Shown: piece by piece, positions 10,242 to 60,484 of the stretch | Position numbering within the stretch: the first letter of the stretch is position 1 | Layout of the letters: every line of letters begins with the position of its first letter | DNA from: Candidatus Liberimonas magnetica | GTDB lineage: Bacteria; Elusimicrobiota; Endomicrobiia; Endomicrobiales; JAFGIL01 | DNA length: 64,000 bases | Direction: 5' to 3' | NCBI GenBank assembly: GCA_020523885.1 | Contig: JAJAPY010000016.1 | Coordinates: forward strand, 10,359 to 74,358 | Notes under the pieces: generated by a model | What the model saw: the letters and a program-made list of their open reading frames with translations, nothing else | Databases searched by the model: none | What the model was told of the DNA's origin: nothing | Translations under genes and position numbers: made by a program

Positions 10242-10248
10242 AACAACA

Positions 10249-10325: not shown

Positions 10326-10334
10326 ATAACAACT

Positions 10335-11162: not shown

Positions 11163-11163
11163 G

Positions 11164-11270: not shown

Positions 11271-11291
11271 GGTGTTTATTGGAGCAATTTT

Positions 11292-12443
11292 GTGAAAAAA
11301 ATAGTCATTCTCGGCTCGACCGGTTCTATCGGATGCCAGGCAATTAATGTCATAAAACGGCTGAGAGGGGAAATAGAAATAGCCGGCCTTACCACCTATT
11401 CAAATCTGGCCTTGCTGAAAAAACAGATAAGAGTATGCCGTCCTCAGATAGTGTCGGTATGGAAAGAAGAACAGGCTTTGGAATTGAACGAGTGGTGCAA
11501 AAGAAATAAGATCAAGCTTGAAATACTGCATGGCCTTGAAGGGCTTGTAGAAATTGCCGGCTGCGCCGCATCTGACATGGTCCTTTCTGCGGTAGTCGGC
11601 TCGATAGGTCTTAAACCACTTCTTGCGGCTATTAAGAGCAAGAAAAATATAGCTTTGGCAAATAAAGAAGCGCTGGTCATAGCCGGCGATATTATAATGG
11701 CCGAAGCAAAAAAAAATAAAGTTAAGCTGATTCCTGTAGACAGCGAGCATTCGGCGGTATTCCAATGTCTGAAACAAGAGGATGCAAAAACAGTTCATAA
11801 GATCATTTTAACGGCTTCTGGCGGCCCCTTTTACAGGTATAACAGCTCTCATTCAGATATTAAAGTTTCACAAGCCCTGGACCATCCTACATGGAAGATG
11901 GGGCAAAAGATAACGATAGATTCAGCAACTTTGATGAACAAGGGTCTTGAAGCTATTGAAGCTCATCATCTGTTCAATATCGGGTTTGATAAAATAGAAA
12001 TAGTCATTCATCCTCAATCCATAGTCCATTCAATGGTTGAATTTATAGATACTACCGTGTTGGCTCATTTGTCCTATCCTACTATGGAATTGCCTATACA
12101 GTATGCTCTAACATATCCGGAAAGGTGTAAGTTGCCTTTAAGAAGACTTGATTTATCCGTTATTAAAAGATTGGAGTTCGATGCCCCTGATTTTGACAGG
12201 TTCCCGTGTCTGAAACTTGCACTAAATGCAGGAAAGATATCCGGTACAATGCCTGCTGTCATGAATGCGGCGAACGAGAAAGCAGTAAGGTTTTTTTTAG
12301 ATGGAAAAATAAAGTTTACCGATATTGCAAAAATAATAAAAAAAGTCATGTCGCTTCATAAAACTATAGAAAACCCGTCTTTAGATGATATATTTGCAGC
12401 AGATTTATGGGCCAGGGAAGTAACTAGAGCGTTTAGCGGATAG
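11292..12443 (+). CDS. dxr: 1-deoxy-D-xylulose 5-phosphate reductoisomerase
   Basis: ILGSTGSIG NADPH motif, LANKEALV, DSEHSA, HPTWKMG motifs. GTG start. Confidence 0.95.
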   Translation: MKKIVILGSTGSIGCQAINVIKRLRGEIEIAGLTTYSNLALLKKQIRVCRPQIVSVWKEEQALELNEWCKRNKIKLEILHGLEGLVEIAGCAASDMVLSAVVGSIGLKPLLAAIKSKKNIALANKEALVIAGDIIMAEAKKNKVKLIPVDSEHSAVFQCLKQEDAKTVHKIILTASGGPFYRYNSSHSDIKVSQALDHPTWKMGQKITIDSATLMNKGLEAIEAHHLFNIGFDKIEIVIHPQSIVHSMVEFIDTTVLAHLSYPTMELPIQYALTYPERCKLPLRRLDLSVIKRLEFDAPDFDRFPCLKLALNAGKISGTMPAVMNAANEKAVRFFLDGKIKFTDIAKIIKKVMSLHKTIENPSLDDIFAADLWAREVTRAFSG

Positions 12444-20978: not shown

Positions 20979-21011
20979 AGCAATATTTTCTTGCATAGAA
21001 AACAGGTTAAA

Positions 21012-44855: not shown

Positions 44856-45737
44856 ATGGATGCTTATCTTAAAGATTTTGTTTCATATATAGAGGCAGAA
44901 AAGGGCTTGAGCAAGAACACCGTCCTTGCATACACTTCAGACTTAAAACACTACTTCAAATACCTTGATAAAATAAAAAAGCCTCTATTGAATCTTGAAC
45001 ACCAGGACCTGACCGAATTTCTCTGGCAGAAGAAACTGGAGGGGTTAAAACCGCGTTCGTTAAGCCGCCTCATAGAAACATTGAGGCAGTTCCACAGGTT
45101 CCTTATAATCGAAGGATATACGTCAAATGACCCGACTCTAGACCTATTGGCCCCTCGCATCCCGGCAAAGCTTCCCAATATGCTTACTAACGAAGAAGTA
45201 GAGCGCCTCCTTTTTACTATATCCGGAGAAAAGGAGCGCCAGATAAGGAACAGGGCTATGGTAGAGCTTATGTATGCCTCAGGTTTAAGGGTATCTGAAC
45301 TTGTCAATCTGACCGCAGAAAACCTTGATCTTAGCCTCGGGTTTGTGAAGGTATTTGGAAAGGGAAATAAAGAAAGGATAGTCCCTGTAGGTAAAACAGC
45401 GCTAAAGTTTCTGGCGAAATACCTTGAATTAAGGAATAAAAACCCCAGAAACCAGGGAAAACACGAATTGTTTTTGACTAAATTAGGCACCAAAATGTCC
45501 AGGATAGAATTCTGGCGCCAGCTTAAAAACCACGCAAAAAAAGCCGGAATTACAAAGAATATGACGCCGCACGTCCTGCGCCATTCTTTTGCCTCTCACA
45601 TGCTTGCCCACGGTGCGGACCTGAGGTTCGTACAGGAGATGCTGGGCCACAGCTCAATTGCAACCACGCAGATATACACTCATGTCGACAAAGAAAGGTT
45701 AAAAGAACTCCACAAAAAATACCATCCCAGAGGTTGA
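44856..45737 (+). CDS. xerD: Tyrosine recombinase XerD/XerC type
   Basis: N-terminal SAM-like domain (EKGLSKNTVLAYTSDL). Catalytic residues in ASGLRVSEL, HVLRHSFASH, LGHSSIATTQIYTHV. Confidence 0.75.
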   Translation: MDAYLKDFVSYIEAEKGLSKNTVLAYTSDLKHYFKYLDKIKKPLLNLEHQDLTEFLWQKKLEGLKPRSLSRLIETLRQFHRFLIIEGYTSNDPTLDLLAPRIPAKLPNMLTNEEVERLLFTISGEKERQIRNRAMVELMYASGLRVSELVNLTAENLDLSLGFVKVFGKGNKERIVPVGKTALKFLAKYLELRNKNPRNQGKHELFLTKLGTKMSRIEFWRQLKNHAKKAGITKNMTPHVLRHSFASHMLAHGADLRFVQEMLGHSSIATTQIYTHVDKERLKELHKKYHPRG

Positions 45738-46505: not shown

Positions 46506-49463
46506 ATGACTATAATTAAAAAAATAATATTCATAGGTATTATTTTACGTACGATATCTGCCAGCTCTGTTTTCGGCCAGGATGTCATTACTACTTTTGC
46601 CGGAACCGGAACTTACGGTTATTCAGGCGACGGAGGGTTGGCCGCTTCAGCCAGGCTATATAATCCTAAAGGAGTAGCGGTTGATAATAATTCGGGAGTT
46701 GTTTATATCTGTGATAGTAATAATCATCGAATACGGAAAGTAAACGCTTCGGGAATAATATCAACTTTTGCCGGAACGGGAACAGCCGGTTTTTCAGGAG
46801 ACGGCAGCCTTGCAACTTCAGCTGAACTTGATACACCTTATGGAGTAGCGGTTGACACTTCAGGGAATGTCTATATCTCTGACCAGGGTAACAACCGGAT
46901 ACGGAAAGTAAACACTTCAAGCACAATAGCAACTTTTGCCGGAGGCGGGACCGGTGGTTTAGGCGACGGCGGCCCTGCAACCTCCGCCCAACTTAATAGT
47001 CCTTACGGAGTAGCGGTTGATTCTTCAGGGAATGTCTATATCTCTGACCAGGGTAACAACCGGATACGGAAAGTAAACACTTCAGGCACAATAGCAACTT
47101 TTGCCGGAGGCGGGACCGGCGGTTTAGGCGACGGCGGCCCTGCAGTCTTAGCTCAACTTAATAACCCTTATGGAGTAACGGTTGACACTCAAGGGAGTGT
47201 CTATATCTCTGATTATACTAATAATTTAATCAGGAAAGTAAACGCTTCAGGCACAATAGCAACTTTTGCCGGAGGCGGGGTCGGCGGTTTAGGCGACGGC
47301 GGCCCTGCAACTTCAGCCCGGCTCACAAATCCCAGTGGTATAGCGGTTGATGATTTAGGGAATGTTTATATTTCTTCCTTTATTGATTTTCGAATACGGA
47401 AAGTGGACACTTCAGGAATAATATCAACTTTTGCGGGGACTGGAATTGCAGGTGATTCAGGCGACGGAGGGAAAGCTACGTTAGCTCAGATAAGTAATTC
47501 TTACGGAGTAGCTGTCGATACTTCAGGGCATGTTTATATCTCTGACTATAACAGTCATCGAATAAGGAAAGTTATTTTGGGGCGCGGGGCTATTGCAGGG
47601 CAGGTATTAGATTCTTATGGAAAAACAGCGGTTTCGGGAGTGCTCATAGAAATATTGCAGTCGGGTGTGCTTAAATCAAGTACGACAAGCGATACGTTCG
47701 GAAATTATGCAGTCAAAGTTGATACCGGGGTTTATAATGTGCGGGCTTCTTTGACAGGCTACCAACCTCAGACTAAAAACGGGTATAATGTAAAAACTAG
47801 TTCGACTGTAACGGTAAATTTTTCCCTTGCACGGATCATCGGCGTTATTTCCGGAAAAGTAACAAAATCGGACGGAACAACGGCGGTTTCAGGAGCGCTC
47901 GTAGAAGCAATGCAATCCGGAGTAACAAAAGCAAGCATTAATACGAATACAAGCGGCAATTACTCAATGAAAATAACTCCGGGGACGTATGATGTAAGAG
48001 TGTCTTCTACAGGTTATGAGCCCCAGCTTAAAACAGGTTATACCGTAGCCGATGGTTCAACTGCCACAGTAAATTTTTCTCTTCTGCAGATCCCAGGTGT
48101 TATTTCAGGCAAAGTGACAAAATCAGACGGAACAACACCTGTCCCAGGAGCCCTTATAGAAATATTACAGTCCGGCGCAGTTAAAGCAAGCGCAACAAGC
48201 GATATAAGCGGCAATTATTCTATAACAACAGATGTGGGAACCTATAATGTAAAGGCATCTAAAACAGGATACCTGTCCCAGACAAAAACCGGGTATGACG
48301 TGACAACCGGTTCGACAAAAACCGTTGATTTTTTGCTTGTCGAGCTTTCTGCAGCTAAAACAGGCGTCATTTCAGGTAAAGTTACACGGTCAAATGGCAC
48401 AACTCCTGTCTCCGGAGCGATGGTAGAAGCGTTAATTTCAGGAATAACAAAAGCAAATGCAACAACAGATGCAAGCGGCAATTATTCTATAAGAGCAGGG
48501 ACGGGGACATATAATGTAAAGGCATCTAAAGCAGGGTACATGTCACAGACAAAAACCGGATACTATGTGGCAGACGGTTCGACAAAAACCGTTAATTTTT
48601 CGCTTGTCGAGCTTGCGGCAGCCAAAACCGGGGTTATTTCAGGGAACGTGACACGGTCGGACGGCATAACACCTGCTTCCGGAGCGGTAGTAGAAGCATT
48701 AATTTCCGGAATAACAAAAGCAAATGTAACAACAGATCTGTACGGCAATTATTCTATAACAGTAGGGACGGGGGCCTATGACGTAAAGGCATCTAAAGGC
48801 GGGTACCTGTCTCAAACAAAAACAGGGTATGACGTGACAACAGGATCGACAAAAACCGTTAATTTTTCGCTTGTAGAGCTTTCAGGGGGCAGCTATGGCG
48901 AAATTGCCGGAAGAGTGACAAAATCCGACGGAGTGACACCTGTTTTTGGTGCGGTAATTGAGGTATTTGAGGCAGGCGTGGAAAGATCAAATGCGATGAC
49001 CGATATAGACGGTTATTATTACCTGGCGGTATCGACAGGGATTTATGATATAAAAGCTTCTATTACAGGATTTCAATCTCAGACAAAAACCTTTTATGCG
49101 CTGGACAGCGCGTCGTTAGTTACTGTAGATTTTTCTTTAGTTGAGGAAATACAGGAAAAACAGGAGATACCTCACGACGACAAAGTGATCGCTCTCGGAG
49201 ATAACTTGTTTAATCCGAGGGCGGGCGGGACATGCAAGGTATGGTTTAACCTTTCACAACCGGGCGATGTAACGATAAAAGTGTATGATTTTATGGGCTC
49301 TCAGGTAAGAACCGGCCTGGACAATGCAAACCATGCTTCGGGGATATCCCAGTGGAACTGGGACGGTAAAGATAATGACGGGAAAATCGTCCCGCCCGGC
49401 ATCTATATTCTGTATTTTAAATACCCGGGTGGAATTATAAAAAGAAAAATAGGCGTAAAATGA
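46506..49463 (+). CDS. Secreted protein: six NHL repeats, six CarboxypepD_reg-like domains, FlgD-Ig-like C-terminal domain (paralog of 21012-23195)
   Basis: Signal peptide, six ...VYIS.. NHL blades, six GVISGKVT.SDGTT.VSGA.VE... domains. The tail WNWDGKDNDGKIVPPGIYILYFKYPGG is nearly the same as the paralog's. Confidence 0.85.
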   Translation: MTIIKKIIFIGIILRTISASSVFGQDVITTFAGTGTYGYSGDGGLAASARLYNPKGVAVDNNSGVVYICDSNNHRIRKVNASGIISTFAGTGTAGFSGDGSLATSAELDTPYGVAVDTSGNVYISDQGNNRIRKVNTSSTIATFAGGGTGGLGDGGPATSAQLNSPYGVAVDSSGNVYISDQGNNRIRKVNTSGTIATFAGGGTGGLGDGGPAVLAQLNNPYGVTVDTQGSVYISDYTNNLIRKVNASGTIATFAGGGVGGLGDGGPATSARLTNPSGIAVDDLGNVYISSFIDFRIRKVDTSGIISTFAGTGIAGDSGDGGKATLAQISNSYGVAVDTSGHVYISDYNSHRIRKVILGRGAIAGQVLDSYGKTAVSGVLIEILQSGVLKSSTTSDTFGNYAVKVDTGVYNVRASLTGYQPQTKNGYNVKTSSTVTVNFSLARIIGVISGKVTKSDGTTAVSGALVEAMQSGVTKASINTNTSGNYSMKITPGTYDVRVSSTGYEPQLKTGYTVADGSTATVNFSLLQIPGVISGKVTKSDGTTPVPGALIEILQSGAVKASATSDISGNYSITTDVGTYNVKASKTGYLSQTKTGYDVTTGSTKTVDFLLVELSAAKTGVISGKVTRSNGTTPVSGAMVEALISGITKANATTDASGNYSIRAGTGTYNVKASKAGYMSQTKTGYYVADGSTKTVNFSLVELAAAKTGVISGNVTRSDGITPASGAVVEALISGITKANVTTDLYGNYSITVGTGAYDVKASKGGYLSQTKTGYDVTTGSTKTVNFSLVELSGGSYGEIAGRVTKSDGVTPVFGAVIEVFEAGVERSNAMTDIDGYYYLAVSTGIYDIKASITGFQSQTKTFYALDSASLVTVDFSLVEEIQEKQEIPHDDKVIALGDNLFNPRAGGTCKVWFNLSQPGDVTIKVYDFMGSQVRTGLDNANHASGISQWNWDGKDNDGKIVPPGIYILYFKYPGGIIKRKIGVK
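46836..47165 (+). repeat. Intragenic tandem repeat, 2 x 165 bp (one NHL blade each)
   Basis: The copies start at 46836 and 47001. By eye I count about a dozen mismatches, including one run of 62 identical nt. A third, more diverged copy follows. Confidence 0.85.
48336..48869 (+). repeat. Intragenic tandem repeat, 2 x 267 bp (one CarboxypepD_reg-like domain each)
   Basis: Units begin with cttgtcgagctt at 48336 and 48603; the next unit starts at 48870. The encoded units, LVEL(S/A)AAKTGVISG..., are highly similar. Confidence 0.8.
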
Positions 49464-49519: not shown

Positions 49520-50845
49520 ATGAACATAGCAAAACGTAACTTAGTAATTATATTTTTATTTTGTATTTTATTCATGCAAAGTAAGTTGTTCGCGGACCAG
49601 CCTGCCGGGGTGTTCCTTGGGCTGCCTGTATCAGCAAGGGCAGGGGGAATGGCTGATTGTTTTACCGCTTTGGCTGATGACCCGTTCGGCGCATATTATA
49701 ACCCGGCCGGAATATCGTTTATTAGATATCCTGCAGCTTCTTTTTCATACCAGGAGTACTTAGTAGATACAAACGGTACTTTTGCGGCAATAGCTGTTCC
49801 GGGAAGGAATTTCAGTATGAGTATCGCACCCGGATTTGTTACGATGCAAGAAGAACCTATATATGATTCCTTGTGGAATGATACAGGAAAGAAATTCAAG
49901 TTCCAGGCAACGATAGTCCCAGTATCAGGTGCATACAGGATTGGAGGCTTTTCTTTAGGGGCTTCGGCTAAATACTATAAAGAAGAGATAGCTGATGAAG
50001 CGCAAGACGTTTCAACGTTTGATGCCGGCATAATTTATAAGTTTAAAAACATAAGTTTTGGCGCATCCTGGCTTAACATGAACGGTAAATTGTGGGATTA
50101 TGACCTTCCGGGTACGATAAAATACGGTGCCGCCTGCAAGATCATGAAAACAAACCTTCTTTTTGATTACAATTCTCAAATTAATATAAGGAAGGATTCT
50201 TATAATTTGGGCGGAGAGGTTGCGCTGTATGAAGCTTTGTTTATAAGGTTCGGGTATAAGTTAAAAGACGAGTTTGGCGGGTTAAGCTATGGTTTAGGCA
50301 TTAAGATCGGCAAATTTGATATTGATTATGCATCTTCAAACTACAGCGAGCTTGGAGTGACCCAGAGAGTAGCCTTGAACTGTCGTTTTAGCGGTGAAAA
50401 GGCGGAAGAGCCTGTAAAAAGAAAGGAAGAGAAGGTCAGCCGTGTTAAAAAACTGGAAAAAGGCTCAAGGATAGCCGTCTGCGAATTTAAGGCTGAAAAC
50501 ACTTCTCAAGCCAGTGTTTCGATGCTAAGACGTGCCATATTTAACGAACTTAGTTCGAACAGGAAGTTCGAAACGCTTAGCAAGGAAAATATGGAAACGG
50601 CCCTTACCAAAAAGGGGTTTAAATCGACAGGGTGCACAAACGATGAATGTGCAGTTAGAATGGGAAAGGCCCTTAAAGTAAAAGTTGTCTTAACAGGTTC
50701 ATTATCAAAGACTGAGGATACTTATCACATTAAAATTTCATTGGTAGAGGTCAAAACCGGAGAGGTTATGCAGTCCATTGCCCAGGATGCGACCTTGGCC
50801 ACGTTATTACAGGCCTGCAAGCAAATCGTTGAAAGAATAGAATAG
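49520..50845 (+). CDS. PorV/PorQ-like outer-membrane beta-barrel fused to a CsgG/LpoB-like periplasmic domain (paralog of 23229-24581)
   Basis: ARAGGMADCFTALADDPFGAYYNPAGISF. C-terminal domain with GCTNDECAVRMGKALKVKVVLTGSL. The 5' ~170 nt are very similar to the paralog at the DNA level. Confidence 0.6.
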   Translation: MNIAKRNLVIIFLFCILFMQSKLFADQPAGVFLGLPVSARAGGMADCFTALADDPFGAYYNPAGISFIRYPAASFSYQEYLVDTNGTFAAIAVPGRNFSMSIAPGFVTMQEEPIYDSLWNDTGKKFKFQATIVPVSGAYRIGGFSLGASAKYYKEEIADEAQDVSTFDAGIIYKFKNISFGASWLNMNGKLWDYDLPGTIKYGAACKIMKTNLLFDYNSQINIRKDSYNLGGEVALYEALFIRFGYKLKDEFGGLSYGLGIKIGKFDIDYASSNYSELGVTQRVALNCRFSGEKAEEPVKRKEEKVSRVKKLEKGSRIAVCEFKAENTSQASVSMLRRAIFNELSSNRKFETLSKENMETALTKKGFKSTGCTNDECAVRMGKALKVKVVLTGSLSKTEDTYHIKISLVEVKTGEVMQSIAQDATLATLLQACKQIVERIE

Positions 50846-50880: not shown

Positions 50881-50991
50881 GTCATTCCTGCCCCCGATTT
50901 AGGGCATTCGAGGGTAAACTCCAGCAGGAATCCAGAGAAGTTGTTTGTCGTCGATATTCCTGGATTCCCGCTAAAGGCATGCAGGAATGAC
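50881..50991. repeat. Nested inverted repeat with GTCATT...AATGAC termini (REP/MITE-like)
   Basis: Outer pair GTCATTCCTGC / GCAGGAATGAC. Inner pair GCAGGAATCCAG / CCTGGATTCCCGC. Confidence 0.75.
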
Positions 50992-51033: not shown

Positions 51034-51062
51034 TTGATTTTTGTGCGTAAAATAGATAAAAT
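51034..51062 (+). promoter_or_regulatory. Sigma70-type promoter candidate for the 51126 gene
   Basis: TTGATT (51034-51039), 17 nt, TAAAAT (51057-51062). Confidence 0.35.
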
Positions 51063-51125
51063 AACGTCAGTCAATGCATTGAAAAACTCCGTTTTTTTAA
51101 CGGAAATCATAGCCGGGGAGTTGTT

Positions 51126-52757
51126 ATGAAAAAAATTATATTTTTATCAGCTGTTATCTGTATAAATTGTTCCTTTGTTTATGCCGCCTTATCTCAAAAG
51201 ATTAATTTTCAGGGCCAGCTGACAAATTCAAACGGCAGCCCTGTGACAGGTACCGTTTCCATGACTTTCAATATCCATGACGCCTTGACGGGAGGGAATA
51301 CCCTAAAAACCATAACTAATTCAAGCGTTTCATTTAATGAAAACGGATTGTATAACGTTGAGCTGGATTTAACGGGTTTAAACTTAAACCAGGATATGTG
51401 GCTCGGCATTAAGGTGGGCTCGGATTCCGAGATGACGCCCAGGGTCCCCATACTTCCTTCCGCATCTTCAATTTTTTCAATAACGGCCCAGAGCGCTCAG
51501 GCTTCCCAGGATAGCAGCCAGTTGGGAGGCATAAGCGCTAATTCTTACTTCTTAAAATCAGGCGGCACGCTAACAGGCCAGATAAACATGGGAAATTTCT
51601 CTATACTTACATCGAGCTCTATCGTAGGGATAACAAAGATAAAATGGGCTGACGGGTCTACAAGCACCCATGCGGCGTCATGCAGCGGCGCCGACATGAC
51701 AAAAGCGACTTATGATGTTAACTCAAACAATAGCGTTGACGATTCAGAGAGGCTGGGCGGAGCATTGCCTTCCATATATTTAACTAAAGCTGTTGCCACC
51801 ACTACTTACTTGCCCTTATCTGTTGCCGCGACTACATATTTGAAATTAGCTGTAGCTAATACAGCTTATATGAAATTATCCGGAGGCACTCTTGGCGGCA
51901 AATTGAACATGAGCAATTTTTCTGTTATTTCTTCCAGTTCCATAGAAGGCATATCAAAGATAAGATGGGCAGACGGGTCTGTAAGTACCCATGCAGCCTC
52001 GATGAGCAGTGCTGATATGACAAAGTCCACCTATGATACAGATACAGATAATATAGTTGACAATTCAGAAAGGCTTGGCGGCAGCCTGCCTTCCCTATAT
52101 TTAACTAAAGCTGTTGCCACTACTACTTACCTGCCTTTAGCTGTTGCATCCACTACGTATTTGAGATTGTCTGTTGCCAATACCACTTATATGAAATTAT
52201 CCGGCGGGACGTTTAGCGGTGACATAACTTCATCGCAAAACAGATTGCAAATATCTACTAATGTGTATACAGTCGGCTATTCCTCAGCTGCCGCATTTTA
52301 CGGAGACGGCTCAAACCTCAGCCTGGGCAGGTCATACGGAGAGATGTTTGCAACTGCTTCTGCGGATCTTAGTGACGTAACCGTTGCCGGCACTTATTTG
52401 AAAGCAGCCACTGTTACTACAGCTGGTGATCTTAAGAATTTCACCCATTCATCAGGAAGGTTGACTTATACTGGAACAAAAACAAAGATATTTAAATGCA
52501 GCGTTTCTTTAACCTCGGCAGTAGCCGCAGGCACACACCTGACAGGTTATAAGATCTATAAAAATGGGGCGCCAATTGCAAAGAGCGAAATATTATCTGT
52601 AACTGGAACAACAGCAATTAATAGATCGGATGTTAATCTTGGATGTCTCGCCCAATTAAACCAAAATGATTTCCTTGAACTTTGGCTTACAACCACTGAT
52701 GCAATTATAGATGTGACAGTATCCTATTTGAATTTTAGTTTAACAGAGGTGCAATAG
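51126..52757 (+). CDS. Secreted tail-fibre-like repeat protein with a possible jelly-roll (C1q/TNF-like) C-terminal head
   Basis: Signal peptide. The N-terminal INFQGQLTNSNGSPVTG domain is a type common in bacterial fibre proteins. Two 107-aa repeats contain ERLGG.LPS.YLTK and YMKLSGGT..G motifs reminiscent of phage tail fibres. Confidence 0.55.
   Translation: MKKIIFLSAVICINCSFVYAALSQKINFQGQLTNSNGSPVTGTVSMTFNIHDALTGGNTLKTITNSSVSFNENGLYNVELDLTGLNLNQDMWLGIKVGSDSEMTPRVPILPSASSIFSITAQSAQASQDSSQLGGISANSYFLKSGGTLTGQINMGNFSILTSSSIVGITKIKWADGSTSTHAASCSGADMTKATYDVNSNNSVDDSERLGGALPSIYLTKAVATTTYLPLSVAATTYLKLAVANTAYMKLSGGTLGGKLNMSNFSVISSSSIEGISKIRWADGSVSTHAASMSSADMTKSTYDTDTDNIVDNSERLGGSLPSLYLTKAVATTTYLPLAVASTTYLRLSVANTTYMKLSGGTFSGDITSSQNRLQISTNVYTVGYSSAAAFYGDGSNLSLGRSYGEMFATASADLSDVTVAGTYLKAATVTTAGDLKNFTHSSGRLTYTGTKTKIFKCSVSLTSAVAAGTHLTGYKIYKNGAPIAKSEILSVTGTTAINRSDVNLGCLAQLNQNDFLELWLTTTDAIIDVTVSYLNFSLTEVQ
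51558..52199 (+). repeat. Intragenic tandem repeat, 2 x 321 bp
   Basis: The units start with tc(a/c)gg(c/a)ggcac at 51558 and 51879, and a third unit begins at 52200. They encode SGGTL.G..NM.NFS...SSSI.GI.KI.WADGS.STHAAS... Confidence 0.8.
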
Positions 52758-52782: not shown

Positions 52783-53349
52783 ATGAAAATAAAAAACTGT
52801 TATAAATTTATTTTATTGTTTCTCTATGGTTTTCTGTTTTTTTATTCCAAATGCCTGGCGGCAAGCGCGAGCGCTAACTATACGCTTGTCAATTACAGCT
52901 TGAATTCAAGCGCGGCAGCGGGGCTTTCCTCTGAAAATAACAAAGCGAAGGCGGCGATAGGGCAGAACATAGTTGTCTTAAGCGAAAGCCCGCTTTATAA
53001 GTCCCTGCCGGGCTACATCTCCGGGATTACGGCTACTGCGCTGACCTTTGCCTCGGATACCCTGGACAACGTTTACGTTTACCCTAACCCTTATAAGCCA
53101 AGCTCACAGGGAAGCATTTATCAGGCCCAGTACCTGACGTTTAAAAACCTTCCCCAGAGAGCTACAATAAAAATTTTCAGCCTCTCGGGTGAGTTGATAG
53201 CCGCGCTTGAAAAAGATTCAAGCTTGAACCAGTGCCAGTGGGTTCCGAAAAATGATGCCGGGAACCGGTTGTCGAGCGGTTTATATTTTTATTACATTAC
53301 AGATGGCCAGGGAAGAAAATCAAAAGGCAAATTTACCGTAATACGCTAA
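52783..53349 (+). CDS. Small secreted protein with an FlgD-Ig / T9SS-sorting-like C-terminal domain
   Basis: Signal peptide. C-terminal VYVYPNPYKP...ATIKIFSLSGELIA...SSGLYFYYITDGQGRKSKGKFTVIR. Confidence 0.55.
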   Translation: MKIKNCYKFILLFLYGFLFFYSKCLAASASANYTLVNYSLNSSAAAGLSSENNKAKAAIGQNIVVLSESPLYKSLPGYISGITATALTFASDTLDNVYVYPNPYKPSSQGSIYQAQYLTFKNLPQRATIKIFSLSGELIAALEKDSSLNQCQWVPKNDAGNRLSSGLYFYYITDGQGRKSKGKFTVIR

Positions 53350-53364
53350 AAAACGAAACGCTGT

Positions 53365-55119
53365 ATGAAGAATAAATCCGGAATTATCCTTGTTTTATGG
53401 TTTGCGCTTGCAGGTTTTGCTTCTATTTCAAAAGCGGCTCTATTTTCCAGGGATGACGCAGGGACTACTTCGGCACAGTTTTTAAAACTCGGGACAGGCG
53501 CAAGGCCTGTTGCCATGGGCGAGGCCTTCACCGGCCTGGCAGACGACATAAATGCGATATACTGGAACCCTGCAGGCCTGACAAACATAAATAATAGGGA
53601 AATTACAGCAATGAGGGCTCAGTGGTTCGAAGACGTTTCTTTCAACTGGGCAGCCTATACTCAGCCTGCCTTTGGCGGCAGTCTCGGGTTAGGGTTGTTT
53701 TATCTCGGGTCAGGTGATATAAAAAAATACGACAATACAGGTAAGGCAAGAAACGAGTCTTACAGCGGTTTTGACTCTGCTTTAAGCGTTTCCTACGCAA
53801 GGCAGTCGCTCTCTATACCGCTCGGCATTACAGTGAAGTTCCTGAATTCAAAACTGGAGGAGGAGTCTGCCTCTGGCATTGCTGCGGATATAGGGTTGCT
53901 TAAGACGCTATCCAAAGCAAAAGATATTATTTTCGGCCTTGCCCTGCAAAACATAGGGACAGGTTTAAAGTATGTCCAGGATAACTCACCGCTTCCTTTG
54001 ACGTTGAGGGCAGGCGTTTCGTTTAAACAGCTCAACAAAAAACTCCTTCTTGTTTCAGACCTGAACTTTCCCGTTGATAATGAAATAAATGCACACCTGG
54101 GAGCCGAATACAAACAGAATTTTGGCGCGTTTGACCTGTTCCCCAGAGTAGGTTTTAAGACAAATACGGTCCGCTCTAGGGATGTTTTGTCCGGGGTTTC
54201 CGGAGGCTTCGGCATTTCTTATAACGATATAAGCGTAAACTACGCCTGGGTCCCGTATTGGGAGCTGGGAGCTACCCAGAGGGTTGACATCGGGTTTAAG
54301 TTCAGCGAAACAAAAAAGAAAATAAAAATAGACTATTCCTCATATTCATCGCAGTATGCCTGTGTTGATTGTGTTAACATAGCAGCTCAAAACATCCACT
54401 TCGATTTCGGCAATTATAGCGTCAAAGAAATAGAAATGCCGATCCTGGATACCGTAGCCGCTCTGATATTCAAATACGACCCTTACAAAGTGCGCATTTC
54501 AGGGCATTCTGACACCGTGGAGGATAAAGCTTTTGGCAAAGATATCTCTTTTATGAGAGCGAATTTTGTTATGAAGTATTTAGTTGAAAGAGGCGTTCCG
54601 CAGGACAAGATTTATGCGGCAGGCTACGGGAGTGATTTACCCGTAGAACCTAACGACGCCGAAGCGGGGCGAAGCAAAAACAGGCGGGTAGAGTTTTTAA
54701 TAACCGATAATAAAGGCGGAGAAGAATTAAAGTTTTCACTTTATGCTTCTTTAAAGGAAAAAGAAGAACTTATAAACATGGATTTAAAGCTTGGCCAGAG
54801 CCTATTTGCAGAAGATAACTATGATAAAGCTATAGAGGAATTTAAAAAAGTTTTACAGCTTGACCCTGACAATACCGAGGCCAAAGAGTATATAAGGAAG
54901 GCCGAAGACATGAAAATCGGCAAAAAGAGCGTAACGGCTGATAATATAGATAAAAAGATAACCAGGATGCGCGGGTATTTTCAGAATGGGCAGGAGTTAT
55001 TTAAAAAAGGAAAATACAGGAAATCAATTAAAGAATTTGAAAAGGTTTTAAAAATAGACCCTATGCATGTCAAATCTATGAGATATATCTTGCGTGCCAC
55101 AGAAGAGATTAATAAATAG
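53365..55119 (+). CDS. PorV/PorQ-like beta-barrel fused to an OmpA C-terminal domain and TPR repeats
   Basis: GARPVAMGEAFTGLADDINAIYWNPAGL motif. OmpA-like RISGHSD...NRRVEFLI peptidoglycan-binding domain. C-terminal TPR-like repeats. Confidence 0.7.
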   Translation: MKNKSGIILVLWFALAGFASISKAALFSRDDAGTTSAQFLKLGTGARPVAMGEAFTGLADDINAIYWNPAGLTNINNREITAMRAQWFEDVSFNWAAYTQPAFGGSLGLGLFYLGSGDIKKYDNTGKARNESYSGFDSALSVSYARQSLSIPLGITVKFLNSKLEEESASGIAADIGLLKTLSKAKDIIFGLALQNIGTGLKYVQDNSPLPLTLRAGVSFKQLNKKLLLVSDLNFPVDNEINAHLGAEYKQNFGAFDLFPRVGFKTNTVRSRDVLSGVSGGFGISYNDISVNYAWVPYWELGATQRVDIGFKFSETKKKIKIDYSSYSSQYACVDCVNIAAQNIHFDFGNYSVKEIEMPILDTVAALIFKYDPYKVRISGHSDTVEDKAFGKDISFMRANFVMKYLVERGVPQDKIYAAGYGSDLPVEPNDAEAGRSKNRRVEFLITDNKGGEELKFSLYASLKEKEELINMDLKLGQSLFAEDNYDKAIEEFKKVLQLDPDNTEAKEYIRKAEDMKIGKKSVTADNIDKKITRMRGYFQNGQELFKKGKYRKSIKEFEKVLKIDPMHVKSMRYILRATEEINK

Positions 55120-55180: not shown

Positions 55181-55209
55181 TTGAAATATGATTGAAAATT
55201 GAGTATAAT
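55181..55209 (+). promoter_or_regulatory. Sigma70-type promoter candidate for the MoxR operon
   Basis: TTGAAA (55181-55186), 17 nt, TATAAT (55204-55209). Confidence 0.5.
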
Positions 55210-55244: not shown

Positions 55245-56249
55245 GTGAAAGAAATCAAGGACAAGAACGACCTGGCTCTCGTTGAAAAACTTCAGGAAGG
55301 ATATAAATCTATCAAGGACCAGCTGTCAAAGGTCATAGTGGGACAGGACGAAGTTATTGAAAAACTTTTAATAGCGCTTTTTTCTAAGGGCCATGTTTTG
55401 ATAGTAGGGGTGCCCGGCCTTGCAAAGACACTCCTTATCTCAAGCCTTGCAAACATCCTGGACCTCAATTTTAGCAGGATACAGTTCACTCCTGACCTTA
55501 TGCCCGCGGACATTACAGGCACTGAGCTGATAGAACAGGATCCGTCTACAGGCAAAAGGAGTTTCAGGTTCGTCAAAGGGCCGTTGTTCGGGCAGATAAT
55601 CCTTGCAGATGAAATAAACCGCACTCCTCCTAAGACCCAGGCAGCTCTGCTCCAGGCGATGCAGGAATATAAGATAACAGCAGGCGGCCAGACCTATCCT
55701 TTGATGCTTCCTTTTTTTGTTCTGGCTACCCAGAATCCCATAGAACAGGAAGGTACCTACCCTTTGCCGGAAGCGCAGCTGGACAGGTTTTTCTTTCAGA
55801 TAAATATTGATTATCCGAGCGCAGAACAGGAAAAGGCGATCATTACGCGGACGACCGGTGCCTACGAACCTAAACTTGAGAAAGTGCTGGCTGCAAATGA
55901 AATTTTAAGCCTTCAGGAAATTGTGAGAAAAGTCCCTGCCTCGGACCATGCAGTCGATTTTGCTGTCCGTTTGACCAGGTCATCGAGGCCGAATGAAAAA
56001 GACTCACCTGATTTTATTAAGCAGTTCGTAAGCTGGGGAGCCGGCCCGCGCGGAGCCCAGGCCTTGATAATCGGCGCCAAGGCGAGGGCTATCCTGTCCG
56101 GCCGCTATGCGGTTTCAATAGAAGATATTAAGGAACTGGTTTACACGAGCTTGCGGCACAGGGTTTTAGTTAATTTTCATGCAGAAGCTGAAGGAATAAC
56201 CAGCGAAGAGATAATAAAGCGGTTGTTAGCTCAAGTCGCAAGCGAATAA
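55245..56249 (+). CDS. MoxR-family AAA+ ATPase
   Basis: Walker A GVPGLAKT, Walker B ILADEINR, LATQNPIEQEGTYPLPEAQLDRF motif. GTG start after GGAGG. Confidence 0.9.
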   Translation: MKEIKDKNDLALVEKLQEGYKSIKDQLSKVIVGQDEVIEKLLIALFSKGHVLIVGVPGLAKTLLISSLANILDLNFSRIQFTPDLMPADITGTELIEQDPSTGKRSFRFVKGPLFGQIILADEINRTPPKTQAALLQAMQEYKITAGGQTYPLMLPFFVLATQNPIEQEGTYPLPEAQLDRFFFQINIDYPSAEQEKAIITRTTGAYEPKLEKVLAANEILSLQEIVRKVPASDHAVDFAVRLTRSSRPNEKDSPDFIKQFVSWGAGPRGAQALIIGAKARAILSGRYAVSIEDIKELVYTSLRHRVLVNFHAEAEGITSEEIIKRLLAQVASE

Positions 56250-56267
56250 ACTAAGCGGAACTAAAGT

Positions 56268-56387
56268 AAATTCAAAATGAAAAATGAAAAATGCAAAATT
56301 AATGTGTCCGCTATGGCGGACGTATTAAAATTATTCGCAAAAGGCGAATACCTCAATTTTGCATTTTGCATTTTGCAATTTGCATTT
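56268..56387. repeat. TGCAAAAT-dialect element, complex form with two internal GC hairpins
   Basis: Left arm aaattcaaaatgaaaaatgaaaaatgcaaaattaatg. Hairpins GTCCGC-tatg-GCGGAC (56306-56321) and ATTCGC-aaaag-GCGAAT (56333-56349). Right arm caattttgcattttgcattttgcaatttgcattt. Confidence 0.85.
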
Positions 56388-56416
56388 AAGTCAGCTGCAA
56401 TAGGCGGTCTGACTTT

Positions 56417-57292
56417 ATGAAATTTTTCGATCCGGTTTCTCTGGCAAAACTTGCAAATATGCATATCCGGGCAAAATCCGTGGTAGAAGGCCTTTTGTCC
56501 GGGCTGCATAACAGCCCTTATAAAGGGCATTCGCTTGAGTTTTCCCAGCACAGGGAATATTCCTACGGCGACGAGTTAAGGCATATTGACTGGAAGGTTT
56601 TCGGCAGGTCCGATAAATTCTTCATAAAACAATTCCAGGATGAAACAAATTTAAGGGGCTATATACTTTTAGACGCTTCAGGTTCCATGAACTTTGCCTC
56701 AAGCGGGCATATAACCAAGCTTGATTATGCCAAATTTCTTGCCGCTTCATTGGCCTACCTTTTCCTTCACCAGGAGGATTCCGCATCTTTGAGCGCTTTT
56801 GATTCCGGCCTTCGTTTTTATCTTCCTCCAAGGCACCAACTCTCGCATCTTTCGGTAATCTTTGATAAATTAGAGGAATTATCAAGCGGAGGCGAGACCG
56901 AGATAGAAAATGTCCTGAAGCTGTTCGGCCAATATTTAAAAAAGCGGGGGCTTATAATCTTTATCTCCGACCTCTTAGCGGACCCGCAGAACGTCCTTAA
57001 GGCCTTAAAATACCTGCGTTTCAGGCACCATGAGATAATCGTCCTTCAGGTGCTTGACCCAAGTGAGGTAAAATTCCCTTTCCTGGGAGACAATCTTTTC
57101 ATCCATCTGGAAAATGAAAAAGAAATCTTTGCCGATGCGGATACGCTGCGGGCAGAATACATAAAACTTTTCAAACAATTCCTGGATGAATACAAAACCG
57201 GTTTCCGCAAGGCCGATATAGATTATTATTTGATAACCACAGATACACCGGTCGAGATCGCCCTGGGACAGTGCTTGAGCAATAGAAGCTAA
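56417..57292 (+). CDS. DUF58 domain protein (MoxR partner)
   Basis: REYSYGDELRHIDWKVFGRSDKFFIKQF motif typical of DUF58; immediately follows MoxR. Confidence 0.85.
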   Translation: MKFFDPVSLAKLANMHIRAKSVVEGLLSGLHNSPYKGHSLEFSQHREYSYGDELRHIDWKVFGRSDKFFIKQFQDETNLRGYILLDASGSMNFASSGHITKLDYAKFLAASLAYLFLHQEDSASLSAFDSGLRFYLPPRHQLSHLSVIFDKLEELSSGGETEIENVLKLFGQYLKKRGLIIFISDLLADPQNVLKALKYLRFRHHEIIVLQVLDPSEVKFPFLGDNLFIHLENEKEIFADADTLRAEYIKLFKQFLDEYKTGFRKADIDYYLITTDTPVEIALGQCLSNRS

Positions 57293-57296
57293 AAAA

Positions 57297-57390
57297 CATA
57301 GCGTAGAGCGTATAGCGGATAGCGTAGAGAAAAGCTAAAACATGAACAGACTTTGACGTTCCTATACGCTCTACGCTATCCGCTATCCGC
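57297..57390. repeat. Stutter-arm inverted repeat, AGCGTAGAGCG dialect
   Basis: Left arm catagcgtagagcgtatagcggatagcgtagag. Right arm cctatacgctctacgctatccgctatccgc. Same dialect as 12426-12518. Confidence 0.85.
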
Positions 57391-57404
57391 TTTCAGTTAA
57401 ATAT

Positions 57405-59405
57405 ATGAATCTTTCTTTCCTTAATATTTCAATTCTCTGGGCCTTGCCTGTAGTATTATTACCGCTTATACTCCATCTTTTTTTCAAGAAGAACCCGAAA
57501 AAACAAGAGTTCAGCGATTTTCGTTTTATCTATCTTGCATTACAAAAACTGCAGAATAAATTCAGGTTGAGGCAGTATTTATTGCTTTTAACCAGGATGC
57601 TTATACTCTTTCTTTTGGTATTGTTTTTTGCAAAACCGATACTGCAATTCAACTTGCAGAAAGGTTCCGAAAGTAAAGATAACCTGATAGCCCTGGTTTT
57701 ATTGATAGATACTTCATATTCCATGGACTACAACCAGGAAGGCAGGCCGCGCTTTGAACATAACAAAGTGATAGCAAAAAAGATAATTTCTATGCTTTCT
57801 GCAAGAGACAGGATAGGCATCATAGCATATTCAAACAGGATAGAAGCTGCAACACCCAGCCTGAGCAACGACAAGAAATACCTTTTAAAGATAATCGATG
57901 AGCTGAAGGTTACTAACCGTCCGACCGATTTCAGCGCGGCGTGGCCTGTCTTAAAACAGCTCCTGGGCCAGTTCCCGGCGTCAAACCAGGCGGCGGTCGT
58001 ACTTTCCGACCTTGCTTCTCACGGGTTTAACACAACCCTGCCGGAAGATGACAGGAGCATCAAGGTGTTTTATTTTAAGCCAAAAGGGGGGGATAACTAT
58101 TGGTTAAATGAAGTAAAAGCGGGGTTCTCTGATGTTCAAAACATGTGGAATATAGAATCCGTGTGCAGGTTTGATTCCGGAAAGTACCCATTTTTATGGC
58201 CTGTGAACTATTTTATAGACAATAAGAAGGCAGGCAGTGATGTCCTTGATGTTTCATCGAAAGACAAAATAAAGGTTTTTTTCTCCTGCCCGGGTGAAAC
58301 CGACGGCCTGCCTTTCAGGGCCAGGCTGGAACAGGATAACCTGGACAGGGATAATAATTATTACTTACTGCTTGACCAGCCAAAAAAATGCAAGACCTGG
58401 ATAGTCGACGGGGACCCGAGGTTCGGAGGCGTTACGTCCGAGAGTTTTTATTTAAAGAATGCCCTCTTAAATGCCGTAACAGTAGGCGAAGACAAGGTAG
58501 ATGAAACGCAGTTAAAGCCTCCCGGAGTCGTTATCCTTGCAAATTTAAGGAAAGACCATGAAAATATAGACCGGTTCATAAACTCCGGAGGAGGGGCGCT
58601 TATTTTTCTTGGCGACAGGACAGCTGATGAATTCAATCCCGATTACCTGCCGGGGAATATCGGTTCCAGGTTTGAGAAAACCCAAAGCATAAACTGGGAA
58701 TCCAAGGACCATGTTTTGAACAAGTTAATGGATATGTCCGAATTTGAGATCGCCAATATCGCCGTAAATCAGGGTTTTGTGCTTCAGGCAAAACCGGGTT
58801 CTCAGGTACTGGCGAGCCTTTCATCGGGCTGGCCTTATCTGCTTGAATCGAAGTACGGCGACGGCAGGGTTATCCTGTGCGCGACCAGGGCAAACCGCGA
58901 GTGGGGCAACATCGTAAGTAAAACCGTTTTTATGCCCCTGATAAAAAATATCGCAGCTTATTTGTCCGGTGGTGCCGAGGAAACGAATACAGCTTCTTTA
59001 AAAATAGGCGAAGCTTTTAGGTATAAAACTTCTATGCCGGATAGCAGGGTTCTTAAGCCCGACGGCACTGTCGTAAAGGCTGTAAAGGGAGGCGAAGAGG
59101 CTCTTTTTACCGATACCGAAGAACCGGGCATATATGCTATGGTTTCAGGCGGCAGGGTTATAAAAAAGTTTGCGGTAAATCTAGACACATCTATTGAAAG
59201 CGAGCTTTCACCCGCGGGCGATACAAGCCTTAAGAGGTATTTTTCAAAGAATTACCTCATAAAGCTTGACGAAGCTAACTGGGAAAGCCAGTTCATTTCG
59301 GCCATATCCGGAAAAGATATATCCAGATGGCTGCTCCTAATCATATTTTTGCTTATAATAGCCGAAATTTATCTTGCAAACCCGATGTCTAAAAAAATAA
59401 ATTAG
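57405..59405 (+). CDS. BatA-N-terminal-domain / von Willebrand factor A membrane protein
   Basis: Aerotolerance-regulator N-terminal motif (ILWALPVVLLPLILHLF), VWA MIDAS DTSYS, C-terminal TM anchor. Confidence 0.75.
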   Translation: MNLSFLNISILWALPVVLLPLILHLFFKKNPKKQEFSDFRFIYLALQKLQNKFRLRQYLLLLTRMLILFLLVLFFAKPILQFNLQKGSESKDNLIALVLLIDTSYSMDYNQEGRPRFEHNKVIAKKIISMLSARDRIGIIAYSNRIEAATPSLSNDKKYLLKIIDELKVTNRPTDFSAAWPVLKQLLGQFPASNQAAVVLSDLASHGFNTTLPEDDRSIKVFYFKPKGGDNYWLNEVKAGFSDVQNMWNIESVCRFDSGKYPFLWPVNYFIDNKKAGSDVLDVSSKDKIKVFFSCPGETDGLPFRARLEQDNLDRDNNYYLLLDQPKKCKTWIVDGDPRFGGVTSESFYLKNALLNAVTVGEDKVDETQLKPPGVVILANLRKDHENIDRFINSGGGALIFLGDRTADEFNPDYLPGNIGSRFEKTQSINWESKDHVLNKLMDMSEFEIANIAVNQGFVLQAKPGSQVLASLSSGWPYLLESKYGDGRVILCATRANREWGNIVSKTVFMPLIKNIAAYLSGGAEETNTASLKIGEAFRYKTSMPDSRVLKPDGTVVKAVKGGEEALFTDTEEPGIYAMVSGGRVIKKFAVNLDTSIESELSPAGDTSLKRYFSKNYLIKLDEANWESQFISAISGKDISRWLLLIIFLLIIAEIYLANPMSKKIN

Positions 59406-59482
59406 AGGGGAAATCATAGATGTCCCAATTTGGTGTCATACCCGCGAACAGACTGTGTCGCAATCGGTAAAAATGAAGGTTT

Positions 59483-59560
59483 TGTCATTGCGAGGCGTCT
59501 TTTGCCGAAGCAATCCATATTTTAACGACGAGATTGCTTCGCCTTCGGCTCGCAATGACA
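59483..59560. repeat. Nested inverted repeat with TGTCATTGC...GCAATGACA termini (REP/MITE-like)
   Basis: Outer pair TGTCATTGCGAG / CTCGCAATGACA. Inner pair GCCGAAGCAATC / GATTGCTTCGCC. Followed by the hairpin CCTCTCC-tgcc-GGAGAGG. Confidence 0.8.
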
Positions 59561-59609
59561 TTCTGGCACCTCCTCTCCTGCCGGAGAGGTTTCACAGGAG
59601 AAGAATACT

Positions 59610-60341
59610 ATGATGATTTTGAGGATACTTCTTGTTATAATCTTTTCAATAAATCTTTGTTTTTCCCAGGAAGGGAATTATTTTAAGTTCGTACAGCTGA
59701 AATATGACGGCAAATGTGACCCTTACCCGGAGGCCTGGCAGGATATACTGGAGTTTATTACCACTACTACTACAATAAAACCGCTCAAGGAAAGGAAACT
59801 GGTCACTTTAGATGACGAAGAACTGTTCTCATACCCGTATTTGTTCATCCTGGGCACAGAAAGCTTCCCGGGTTTAAGCGATAAAGACTGTGCTGTGATT
59901 AGGAGGTACCTCTCTAACGGCGGGATGATATTTGCCGAGGATTCTTCCGGGATAAAAGGCAGTGCTTTTGATTCTTCCTTCAGGAAAGAAATAGCCAAGG
60001 CCTTTCCTGAAAGCAAGCTTAAAAAACTGCCCTTTGACCACCCGCTTTACAGGGCTTATTATCTGTTAAGAAAGGTGGGAGGGAGGCGTTTGACAAATAA
60101 TTATATGGAAGGAATAGATATTTCAGGAAGGACTGCGCTCATCTATTCGCAGAATGACCTTATCGGTGCCTGGGCAAAAGACCGTCTGGGGAATTACTTG
60201 TGGCACTGCCTGCCCGGGGAAGAGACCCAGAGGTTTGAAGCGCAGAAACTGACCTTGAACCTGATAATGTATTTTGTCACAGGCACCTATAAAAGCGATG
60301 CTGTGCATAAACCGTACATACAGGAAAAGCTGGGAAGATAA
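59610..60341 (+). CDS. DUF4159 domain protein
   Basis: FKFVQLKYDGKCDPYPEAWQDIL...FSYPYLFILGTESF...IRRYLSNGGMIFAED matches the DUF4159 pattern and its usual Bat/MoxR context. Confidence 0.7.
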   Translation: MMILRILLVIIFSINLCFSQEGNYFKFVQLKYDGKCDPYPEAWQDILEFITTTTTIKPLKERKLVTLDDEELFSYPYLFILGTESFPGLSDKDCAVIRRYLSNGGMIFAEDSSGIKGSAFDSSFRKEIAKAFPESKLKKLPFDHPLYRAYYLLRKVGGRRLTNNYMEGIDISGRTALIYSQNDLIGAWAKDRLGNYLWHCLPGEETQRFEAQKLTLNLIMYFVTGTYKSDAVHKPYIQEKLGR

Positions 60342-60347
60342 TAATAT

Positions 60348-60476
60348 GGCAATTTCGAAATCCGAAGCACTAATTTCGAAAAAAATCGCAAACTTAAAAA
60401 AGCAAAATATTTTTTCTTTTTGCCTATTGGTCATTGATTATTTTTTCGAGATTCGAAATTGGTTATTCGAGATTGG
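60348..60476. repeat. Stutter-arm inverted repeat, TTCGAAAT dialect
   Basis: Left arm ggcaatttcgaaatccgaagcactaatttcgaaaaaaatcg. Right arm ttattttttcgagattcgaaattggttattcgagattgg. Confidence 0.8.
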
Positions 60477-60484
60477 AACTATAA

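Follow-up and report, generated by a model that had tools for sequence, protein, structure and literature searches.

A gene of Candidatus Liberimonas magnetica for a probable compact cell-surface fibre of the mosaic adhesive trimer type, followed by a conserved pair of partner genes

A stretch of 64,000 nucleotides from Candidatus Liberimonas magnetica (Elusimicrobiota; contig JAJAPY010000016.1 of assembly GCA_020523885.1, positions 10,359 to 74,358 of the forward strand), referred to as the window, was analysed around a single plus-strand open reading frame (ORF) at window positions 51126-52757. The product of this gene is probably a fibre of the mosaic adhesive trimer (MAT) type displayed on the cell surface. 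Its 543 codons specify a 543-amino-acid (aa) protein with a signal peptide, as first described from the translation, and an identical protein is recorded as hypothetical protein LHV68_11100 in an Elusimicrobia metagenome-assembled genome. The analysis itself covers the domain anatomy, the fold of each end domain, the homologies, the phage-free context and the conserved gene order; a trimeric state, exposure at the surface, an adhesive function and the roles of two partner proteins encoded downstream are inferred. The fibre is a new, compact MAT-type member and not a new kind of system; MATs with a tip like tumour necrosis factor (TNF) were already known. The first-pass annotation of this DNA had not recognised the architecture as that of a family described before in Bdellovibrio and other bacteria.

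MAT fibres were described in 2024 as the means by which Bdellovibrio recognises its prey, and 21 Bdellovibrio proteins belong to the family (Caulton et al., Nat Microbiol 2024, PMC10769870). The family is defined by a signal peptide, a conserved beta-rich N-domain of ~130 aa, a trimeric phage-like fibre and a variable tip. Tips include S74 and TNF-like (Bd2439, Bd2734) domains, Bd2439 binds N-acetylglucosamine (GlcNAc), and the members tested are adhesins (PMC10769870). The MAT N-domain has no homologue in the PDB and is presumed to bind a cell-surface element, whose identity was left open (PMC10769870). Table S3 of the same paper lists MATs from Oligoflexia, the PVC group, Alpha- and Deltaproteobacteria, the FCB group and Omnitrophica, and does not list Elusimicrobia (PMC10769870).

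The window's fibre has its parts in the same order as Bd2439 and Bd2734, namely signal peptide, beta-rich N-domain, phage-tail-fibre-like stalk and exchangeable tip (Table 1). Further features in common with the Bdellovibrio MATs are a chromosomal, phage-free context, domain shuffling and an N-domain without structural homologue in the PDB. The fibre is much shorter than these proteins (543 aa versus ~600-2,000 aa). Its N-domain comprises ~100 aa instead of ~130 aa and matches the first half of the family profile below the cut-off. Several MATs contain beta-helices, whereas none was detected here and the stalk consists of A-B-C modules modelled at low confidence.

The leader (MKKIIFLSAVICINCSFVYA, followed by ALSQ after the predicted cleavage site) has a basic n-region, a hydrophobic core, an A-x-A-like site and no lipobox, and reads as a type-I (Sec) signal peptide. 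All relatives carry an equivalent leader directly preceding the INFQG motif. The domain that follows was modelled with AlphaFold2 (AF2) as an all-beta sandwich with a predicted local distance difference test score (pLDDT) of 94-98 for model residues 11-90 (88 for the first ten). It carries the motifs INFQGQLT and D.EMTPR. The pattern INFQGQLT..G.PVTG stands directly after the leader and is conserved in relatives, so that the N-terminal INFQGQLT..G.PV.G domain proposed in the first-pass annotation is borne out. With the model of N-domain and stalk, Foldseek retrieved no significant neighbour in the PDB; generic Ig/macroglobulin-like sandwiches were found at E≥0.0095.

When 1.84 billion representatives of 50 % identity clusters were searched exhaustively with HMMER, 9,791 clusters at E≤1e-3 proved to share part of the fibre protein, mostly the N-domain. 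In the 156 relatives that were retrieved, the match runs through the N-domain (residues 21-128) in 135, the tip in 21, the stalk repeats in 17 and the neck in 11. Among 40 N-domain relatives, 33 matched the NCBIfam profile NF053851 (Bdello_MAT_N, mosaic adhesive trimer family chimeric fiber protein; length 162, cut-off 60 bits) at E≤0.01 (best E 1.4e-13). The relatives include P0009, a 702-aa protein from Omnitrophica, and a MAT of 713 aa from Omnitrophica is listed in Table S3 of the MAT paper. The family is mosaic: the N-domain also precedes S74 (P0010), Hcp-like (P0007) and Chlorovirus glycoprotein repeat (P0004) regions, the tip is also found behind other N-termini, and in P0012 (268 aa) the tip is fused straight to the N-domain without a stalk. 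The S74 trimer chaperone carried by relatives gives indirect support for a trimeric stalk. When the window was scanned for MAT-like genes, the fibre gene was the sole one present.

Two other loci with MAT-like genes show unusual arrangements. In P0007 (locus L006, 7985-9406) the MAT-type N-domain is fused to a C-terminal region like Hcp, the tube protein of the type VI secretion system (PF05638, E 3.2e-6). P0007 is followed by a gene (9485-11857) for another MAT-like fibre, which bears YadA_head and Peptidase_S74 domains; proteins with thrombospondin-type-3 repeats are encoded close by. At locus L007 (1302-7965) the gene of the MAT-like fibre P0006 (Bdello_MAT_N E 1.3e-6) comes immediately after a set of four genes: two encode pilin-like proteins that share a C-terminal ...DYTDTITVV... 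motif, and two encode proteins with a C-terminal transmembrane helix. This layout resembles the 'Pam' pilus operon of the candidate phyla radiation (CPR; bioRxiv 10.64898/2026.03.03.709456), and no NCBIfam Pam model was matched.

The stalk is built mainly of two repeat units (residues 145-251 and 252-358). They align without gaps, with 80 of 107 residues and 242 of 321 nucleotides identical, and the period is exactly 107 aa or 321 bp. In the best 80-aa window 63 residues were identical, against a maximum of 21 in 200 shuffles, which confirms the two exact-period 321-bp repeats reported earlier. Identity between the units at the three codon positions (77, 92 and 58 %) points to an old duplication under purifying selection and not to a recent slip. 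With only 75 % identity between its DNA copies, the 321-bp repeat escaped Tandem Repeats Finder. Each unit comprises module A (SGGTL.G.LNM.NFS..SSSI.GI.KI.WADGS.STHAAS), module B (..ADMTK.TYD....N.VD.SERLGG.LPS.YLTK) and module C, which consists of three copies of the decapeptide.VA.TTYL.L. The AF2 monomer model, computed in the same job as the N-domain, gave the stalk a pLDDT of 33-76, as is expected of an intertwined oligomer seen as a monomer.

Stalk length varies. In P0002, the closest orthologue (62 % identity), each unit contains a single decapeptide, against three here. Fibre lengths of 543 and 506 aa occur among orthologues, and of 1,047 and 1,094 aa between alleles. The latter are alleles of one fibre gene of a related population, from different samples (L019 222-3365, 1,047 aa; L017 2282-5566, 1,094 aa). 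A 47-residue indel in the stalk distinguishes them at 95.6 % identity, and the 186-aa partner encoded downstream is identical in both. This difference is a within-population polymorphism of stalk length.

Several stalk modules are shared with viral proteins. The GDMTK.TYD motif is common to the fibre and phage or viral proteins, and the longer B-module pattern GDMTK.TYD....VD..E recurs many times in ~1,090-aa proteins from IMG/VR viral contigs. The neck segment A3' is repeated five times in P0004, where Pfam labels it PF06598 Chlorovi_GP_rpt (E 1.5e-13). A genome scan with the single protein gave one weak locus, encoding an Anaerolineaceae phage-like protein that has the B-module motif alone in common with the fibre. 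The earlier comparison of the repeats with phage fibres therefore stands as far as modules common to phage fibre-like proteins are concerned. The Pfam phage tail 'collar' domain suggested at the same time was rejected, since the repeats matched no Pfam or PHROG family.

The tip (141 residues, 403-543) was modelled with AF2 on an alignment of 25 homologous segments. The model is all-beta with about 10 strands (pLDDT 91, predicted template modelling score 0.85), and the tip is a discrete domain that is also present in other proteins. A Foldseek search of the PDB returned 194 chains at E≤1e-3 with template modelling (TM) scores up to 0.73. The top 50 of these were TNF/C1q-fold proteins or phage fibre/tail parts, including ExsFA, BxpB and BclA of the Bacillus exosporium, a cyanophage short-tail-fibre CBD, EDA, 4-1BBL, TRAIL, C1QTNF5 and the BC2L-C lectin. 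In the matches with the TNF/C1q fold this domain is trimeric, which likewise gives indirect support for a trimer. The best structural matches in the PDB were BclA, ExsFA and BxpB (3tyj, 2r6q, 7r1m, 8d02; TM 0.63-0.73), all of them surface filament proteins whose C-terminal part forms a trimeric C1q/TNF-like knob. They differ from the fibre in sequence (13-16 % identity), in N-terminal anchoring and in location, on a spore instead of a diderm envelope.

Phage proteins come closer still. In BFVD (predicted viral structures), proteins of uncultured tailed phages matched the tip at TM 0.92-0.95, a root mean square deviation (rmsd) of 1.3-1.5 Å and 20-26 % identity. Across phage fibres and receptor-binding proteins (cyanophage A-1(L) 8ke9; A0A6J5RU47; Roseobacter phage CRP-5 A0A646QWC8) the tip fold is nearly identical (TM 0.84-0.95, rmsd 1.3-1.9 Å, 17-26 % identity). 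Pfam gave nothing on the fibre at E≤0.1, hence neither C1q (PF00386) nor TNF (PF00229), and a sequence search of the PDB gave no match at E≤10 with either the single sequence or a C-domain profile. As sequence methods detect nothing, the fold assignment rests on AF2 and Foldseek; in the model the tip is a TNF/C1q-like jelly roll at the fold level, as the first-pass annotation had supposed for a C1q/TNF-like head. Four relatives (P0037, P0063, P0094, P0131) have two TNF-like tip domains in tandem per chain, which is unusual for a trimer cap.

No capsid, terminase, portal, baseplate, sheath or lysis gene was found in the window, from ~30 kb upstream to 11 kb downstream of the fibre gene. Pfam annotation of 28 neighbouring ORFs (17.6 to 63.6 kb) identified housekeeping and envelope genes exclusively. 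Upstream genes encode IF-2, EF-G, PNPase, FtsK, LolA, RodZ, a MiaB-like protein, PgsA, PgpA and a XerC/D-type recombinase, and the downstream neighbour is a MoxR-DUF58-BatA operon; all neighbours lie on the plus strand. GC content is flat across the locus (0.39-0.45), and the fibre matched 0 PHROG families at E≤1. The absence of phage genes stated earlier was thus reproduced, and a prophage, which had been named as a finding that would speak against a chromosomal fibre, was not found in the window. A prophage remnant was rejected on the cellular neighbours, the flat GC content and the null PHROG result. Likeness to phage fibres is one of modules and fold only: where these have a baseplate or tail attachment domain, the present protein has a Sec signal peptide and a cellular N-domain. 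The sole integrase-family gene near the locus (44856-45737, 293 aa) has the XerC/XerD layout (Phage_int_SAM_1 plus Phage_integrase); it is surrounded by housekeeping genes and lies some 5 kb upstream of the cluster of surface-protein genes.

Table 1. Features of the fibre gene and its two downstream partner genes (window positions).
Feature	Position	Strand	Basis
Sigma-70-like promoter candidate, TTGATT-17-TAAAAT	51034..51062	+	consensus scan, 9/12 matches, weak
Ribosome-binding site GGGGAG, ATG 5 nt further on	51115..51120	+	sequence reading
Signal peptide, residues 1-20, predicted cleavage after VYA	51126..51185	+	translation
N-terminal MAT-like beta-sandwich, residues 21-~112, linker to 129	51186..51512	+	AF2, homology
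Partial B-type stalk module B0, residues 130-144, SSQLGGISANSYFLK	51513..51557	+	similarity to ends of B1/B2
Stalk repeat unit 1, residues 145-251, modules A1-B1-C1	51558..51878	+	gap-free match to unit 2
Stalk repeat unit 2, residues 252-358, modules A2-B2-C2	51879..52199	+	gap-free match to unit 1
Variant module A3', residues 359-402, SGGTFSGDITSSQNRLQISTNVYTVGYSSAAAFYGDGSNL, Chlorovirus-glycoprotein-repeat-like neck	52200..52331	+	match in P0004
C-terminal TNF/C1q-like jelly-roll tip, residues 403-543, plus stop codon	52332..52757	+	AF2, Foldseek
188-aa partner: signal peptide, ~55-aa N-module, type A C-terminal sorting domain of the type IX secretion system	52783..53349	+	TIGR04183
584-aa partner: PorV/PorQ-family barrel, OmpA-like peptidoglycan-binding domain, TPR repeats	53365..55119	+	NF033709

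The fibre gene heads an operon-like cluster, as had been noted before. A gene for a 188-aa protein begins 25 bp past the fibre stop codon, a gene for a 584-aa barrel protein begins 15 bp past the 188-aa gene, and this order is conserved. The 188-aa protein combines a C-terminal sorting domain (CTD) of the type IX secretion system (T9SS; TIGR04183 29.6 bits, cut-off 23; PorZ C-terminal domain E 7e-15) with a novel N-module of the pattern SANYTLVNYSLNS...SS.N...G.N....S..Y....GYI. The 584-aa protein scored 157.9 bits (cut-off 90) on NF033709 (PorV_fam) and matched Pfam OmpA (E 1.4e-14) and TPR_2 (E 3.8e-14). One or more fibre genes, the gene of a small CTD protein of ~170-270 aa and a barrel gene make up a cassette, of which the first two parts were found in eight independent loci with different flanks (Table 2). 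The PorV/PorQ-family barrel gene comes next in seven of the eight, and the eighth contig ends too early to show it. The cassette fibres bear differing tips. P0003 and P0164 appear to lie on one 4,228-bp contig, judged solely from the equal size of their contigs.

Table 2. Gene order in cassette loci other than the window.
Locus	Fibre	Small protein	Barrel
L002/L003	two different tandem fibre genes	189 aa	583 aa
L010=L019, L017, L018, L020	two tandem TNF-tipped fibres	186 aa	569 aa
L021/L022	fibre C-terminal end	187 aa	341-aa UPF0164 barrel
L023	700 aa, no TNF-like domain detected	171 aa	405-aa PorV
L024	YadA-head-like	192-aa CTD protein	cut by contig end
L004 (distant variant)	490 aa, PorV gene before it	272-aa CarboxypepD_reg+CTD protein	UPF0164 barrel

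The small proteins were compared by means of a hidden Markov model (HMM) of the N-module, which was built from close family members only and run against 1,454 ORFs. It recovered the distant partners in L004 (E 1.5e-5) and L023 (E 4.5e-12); the latter protein is 45 % identical to the window's 188-aa protein. No significant match was obtained among the neighbours in L006, L007, L009 and L025 (E 0.08 or worse). A search of a 5.8-billion-protein library with the N-module profile returned nothing significant, because the module is too short for a library of such size. The motif 'S.NY.L' was rejected as a partner marker and replaced by the HMM, as it is unspecific and also matches CarboxypepD_reg repeats. 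In each homologue of the 188-aa protein whose context was read, a fibre gene lies immediately upstream. A metagenome scan gave three loci, none of which added a readable cassette. The pair of CTD adaptor and PorV-OmpA-TPR barrel is not described in the MAT paper, and a conserved partner cassette for such fibres, with its ~55-aa N-module, appears to be new.

T9SS genes offer a parallel. In the pairs PorZ-PorQ and PorU-PorV, the gene of a CTD protein likewise adjoins that of a PorV/PorQ-family barrel. Here, by contrast, the barrel is fused to OmpA and TPR parts, the CTD protein has just 188 aa and a novel N-module, the fibre is without CTD, and no SprA, PorK/L/M/N or PorU gene was seen in the window. 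The fibre as T9SS cargo was rejected, since no CTD (TIGR04183/TIGR04131) was detected and its C-terminus is the TNF-like domain. Two paralogous gene pairs occur in the window (20991-23195 with 23229-24581, and 46506-49463 with 49520-50845). In each, a large NHL-propeller/CarboxypepD_reg protein with a FlgD_ig/T9SS-like C-terminal domain is followed by a PorV-family barrel with an LpoB/CsgG-like C-terminal part; the cargos are 52 % and the barrels 56 % identical. Three cases of a CTD protein followed by a PorV-like barrel within 64 kb hint at cognate cargo-barrel pairing.

These features can be assembled into a model. The precursor would be exported by Sec with removal of its 20-residue leader, as its sequence suggests, and three chains would assemble into a fibre, as the known properties of MATs and of TNF/C1q proteins suggest. 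The ~100-aa N-terminal beta-sandwich would lie next to the cell and hold the fibre on the envelope. The two 107-aa A-B-C units and the neck would act as a spacer of set length, and three TNF/C1q-like jelly rolls would form the distal tip. By analogy with Bd2439 and BC2L-C, the tip may bind a ligand, for which a glycan on the surface of another cell or of a particle is most likely. The putative role as an adhesin or contact fibre, proposed in the first-pass annotation, agrees with the tested function of the MAT family. As PorZ does with PorQ, the sorting domain of the 188-aa protein may engage the PorV/PorQ-like barrel, either docking in it or being handled by it. Through its OmpA domain the barrel would be tied to peptidoglycan, and the free N-module of the 188-aa protein would contact the base of the fibre. 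On the conserved gene order, the two partners are tentatively proposed as an attachment or export station for MAT-type fibres, a suggestion that we regard as possible but rather doubtful.

Several points weigh against assigning the protein to the MAT type and against the partner model. On NF053851 the fibre scored just 13.3 bits (E 0.055), and ten relatives scored individually reached 12.7-37.2 bits, all below the cut-off of 60. The matches of the relatives span about positions 3-78 of the 162-position profile, signal peptide included. Sub-cut-off matches to half a profile indicate that the N-domain is a divergent, shorter relative and not a curated member. At the sequence level, its homology to the MAT N-domain is supported, and membership in the Bdellovibrio subfamily is not. 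Kinship to the Bdellovibrio MATs was judged through this profile, and the AF2 models covered single chains; the trimer state is supposed from the properties of MATs and of TNF/C1q domains. The tandem tip domains in four relatives misfit a simple terminal trimeric knob, and no ligand site was identified in the tip. The MAT-like loci L006 and L007 are altogether without the cassette and have no PorV gene, L009 has a different small protein, and L014 and L025 end before the downstream genes. A T9SS sorting domain is absent from the fibre itself, so that any link to the PorV-like barrel would be indirect.

The strongest competing explanation, although unlikely, is a structural role, in which the fibre would form a hair-like nap or coat that sets surface properties, as BclA and ExsFA do on the exosporium. 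The tip's best PDB matches are exosporium proteins (ExsFA, E 9.7e-7; BxpB, BclA), a stalk with a C1q-like knob is their architecture too, and stalk length varies among the fibre's orthologues and alleles. The length of the BclA stalk is variable as well. The translation, however, contains no collagen-like G-X-Y stalk, and a BclA-like collagen filament was rejected, as there is no G-X-Y run and the stalk consists of A-B-C modules. The N-domain is of the MAT type, whose tested members are adhesins; the TNF-like tips of MATs and of BC2L-C bind sugars; and the exchange of tips among mosaic relatives points to diversifying ligand recognition.

A less probable alternative, to which we give little credence, sees the protein as an adhesin at the tip of a filament that is pilus-like or anchored by the T9SS, with the small protein as a pilin-like base subunit joined to the fibre N-domain by strand complementation. 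The small partners match the first ~80 positions of NCBIfam CPR_pilus_PamT (E 1e-5 to 1.6e-8), and PamT is the proposed tip pilin of a donor-strand-exchange pilus (bioRxiv 10.64898/2026.03.03.709456). The L007 fibre, moreover, adjoins pilin-like and chaperone-like genes. Measured against the PamT cut-off of 240 bits these scores are nevertheless far too low, and part of the matched stretch is signal peptide. No Pam model matched the L007 proteins, the N-module HMM had no significant match among the neighbours in L006, L007, L009 and L025, and the window cassette contains no chaperone or usher gene.

Very improbable is an origin as what is left of a prophage, tailocin or contractile injection system, whether as a stranded tail-fibre gene or serving a particle encoded elsewhere. 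In its favour, the tip is structurally closest to phage proteins, viral fibre-like proteins contain the B-module motif repeatedly, A3' corresponds to a Chlorovirus glycoprotein repeat and relatives bear the S74 chaperone domain of tailspikes. Against it, virion and lysis genes are absent from the surveyed region, the neighbours are housekeeping genes, the only integrase-family gene has the XerC/D two-domain layout, GC content and PHROGs give no phage signal, a Sec signal peptide precedes an N-domain of the cellular MAT type, and synteny with outer-membrane genes is found in several relatives of differing flanks.

The MAT-type fibre gene is preceded by an intergenic gap of 280 bp that contains the promoter candidate. 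Between the upstream PorV-LpoB gene and this candidate, a nested inverted repeat of ~110 nt (GTCATTCCTGC...GCAGGAATGAC) lies at 50881-50991. Its RNA folds at -48.2 kcal/mol (z = -5.4 versus shuffles). The arm sequence does not recur above chance elsewhere in the window, and Rfam assigned no family, the single match being sub-threshold and at chance level. The repeat could be a terminator, an attenuator or a repeat element. Downstream, 125 bp after the cassette, a MoxR AAA+/DUF58/BatA-VWA/DUF4159/GATase1-like gene set (55245-62644) forms a Bat aerotolerance-type operon with its own strong promoter-like site at 55181-55209.

The fibre places MAT-like proteins in Elusimicrobia, in a compact form of 543 aa that would be easy to express. 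With ~9,800 clusters, the N-domain is too widespread to mark out a predatory or epibiotic lifestyle and is, instead of a hallmark of predators, a module of bacterial surface fibres in general. The occurrence of the cassette across several lineages gives a concrete, testable hypothesis of anchoring or export. If the partner model were true, it would answer the MAT paper's open question of the binding partner of the N-domain. It would also define a two-partner display module derived from the T9SS, which may be general in this organism, given two further pairs of CTD cargo and PorV-like barrel. For Candidatus Liberimonas magnetica, the fibre is a candidate device for contact with other cells or with particles.

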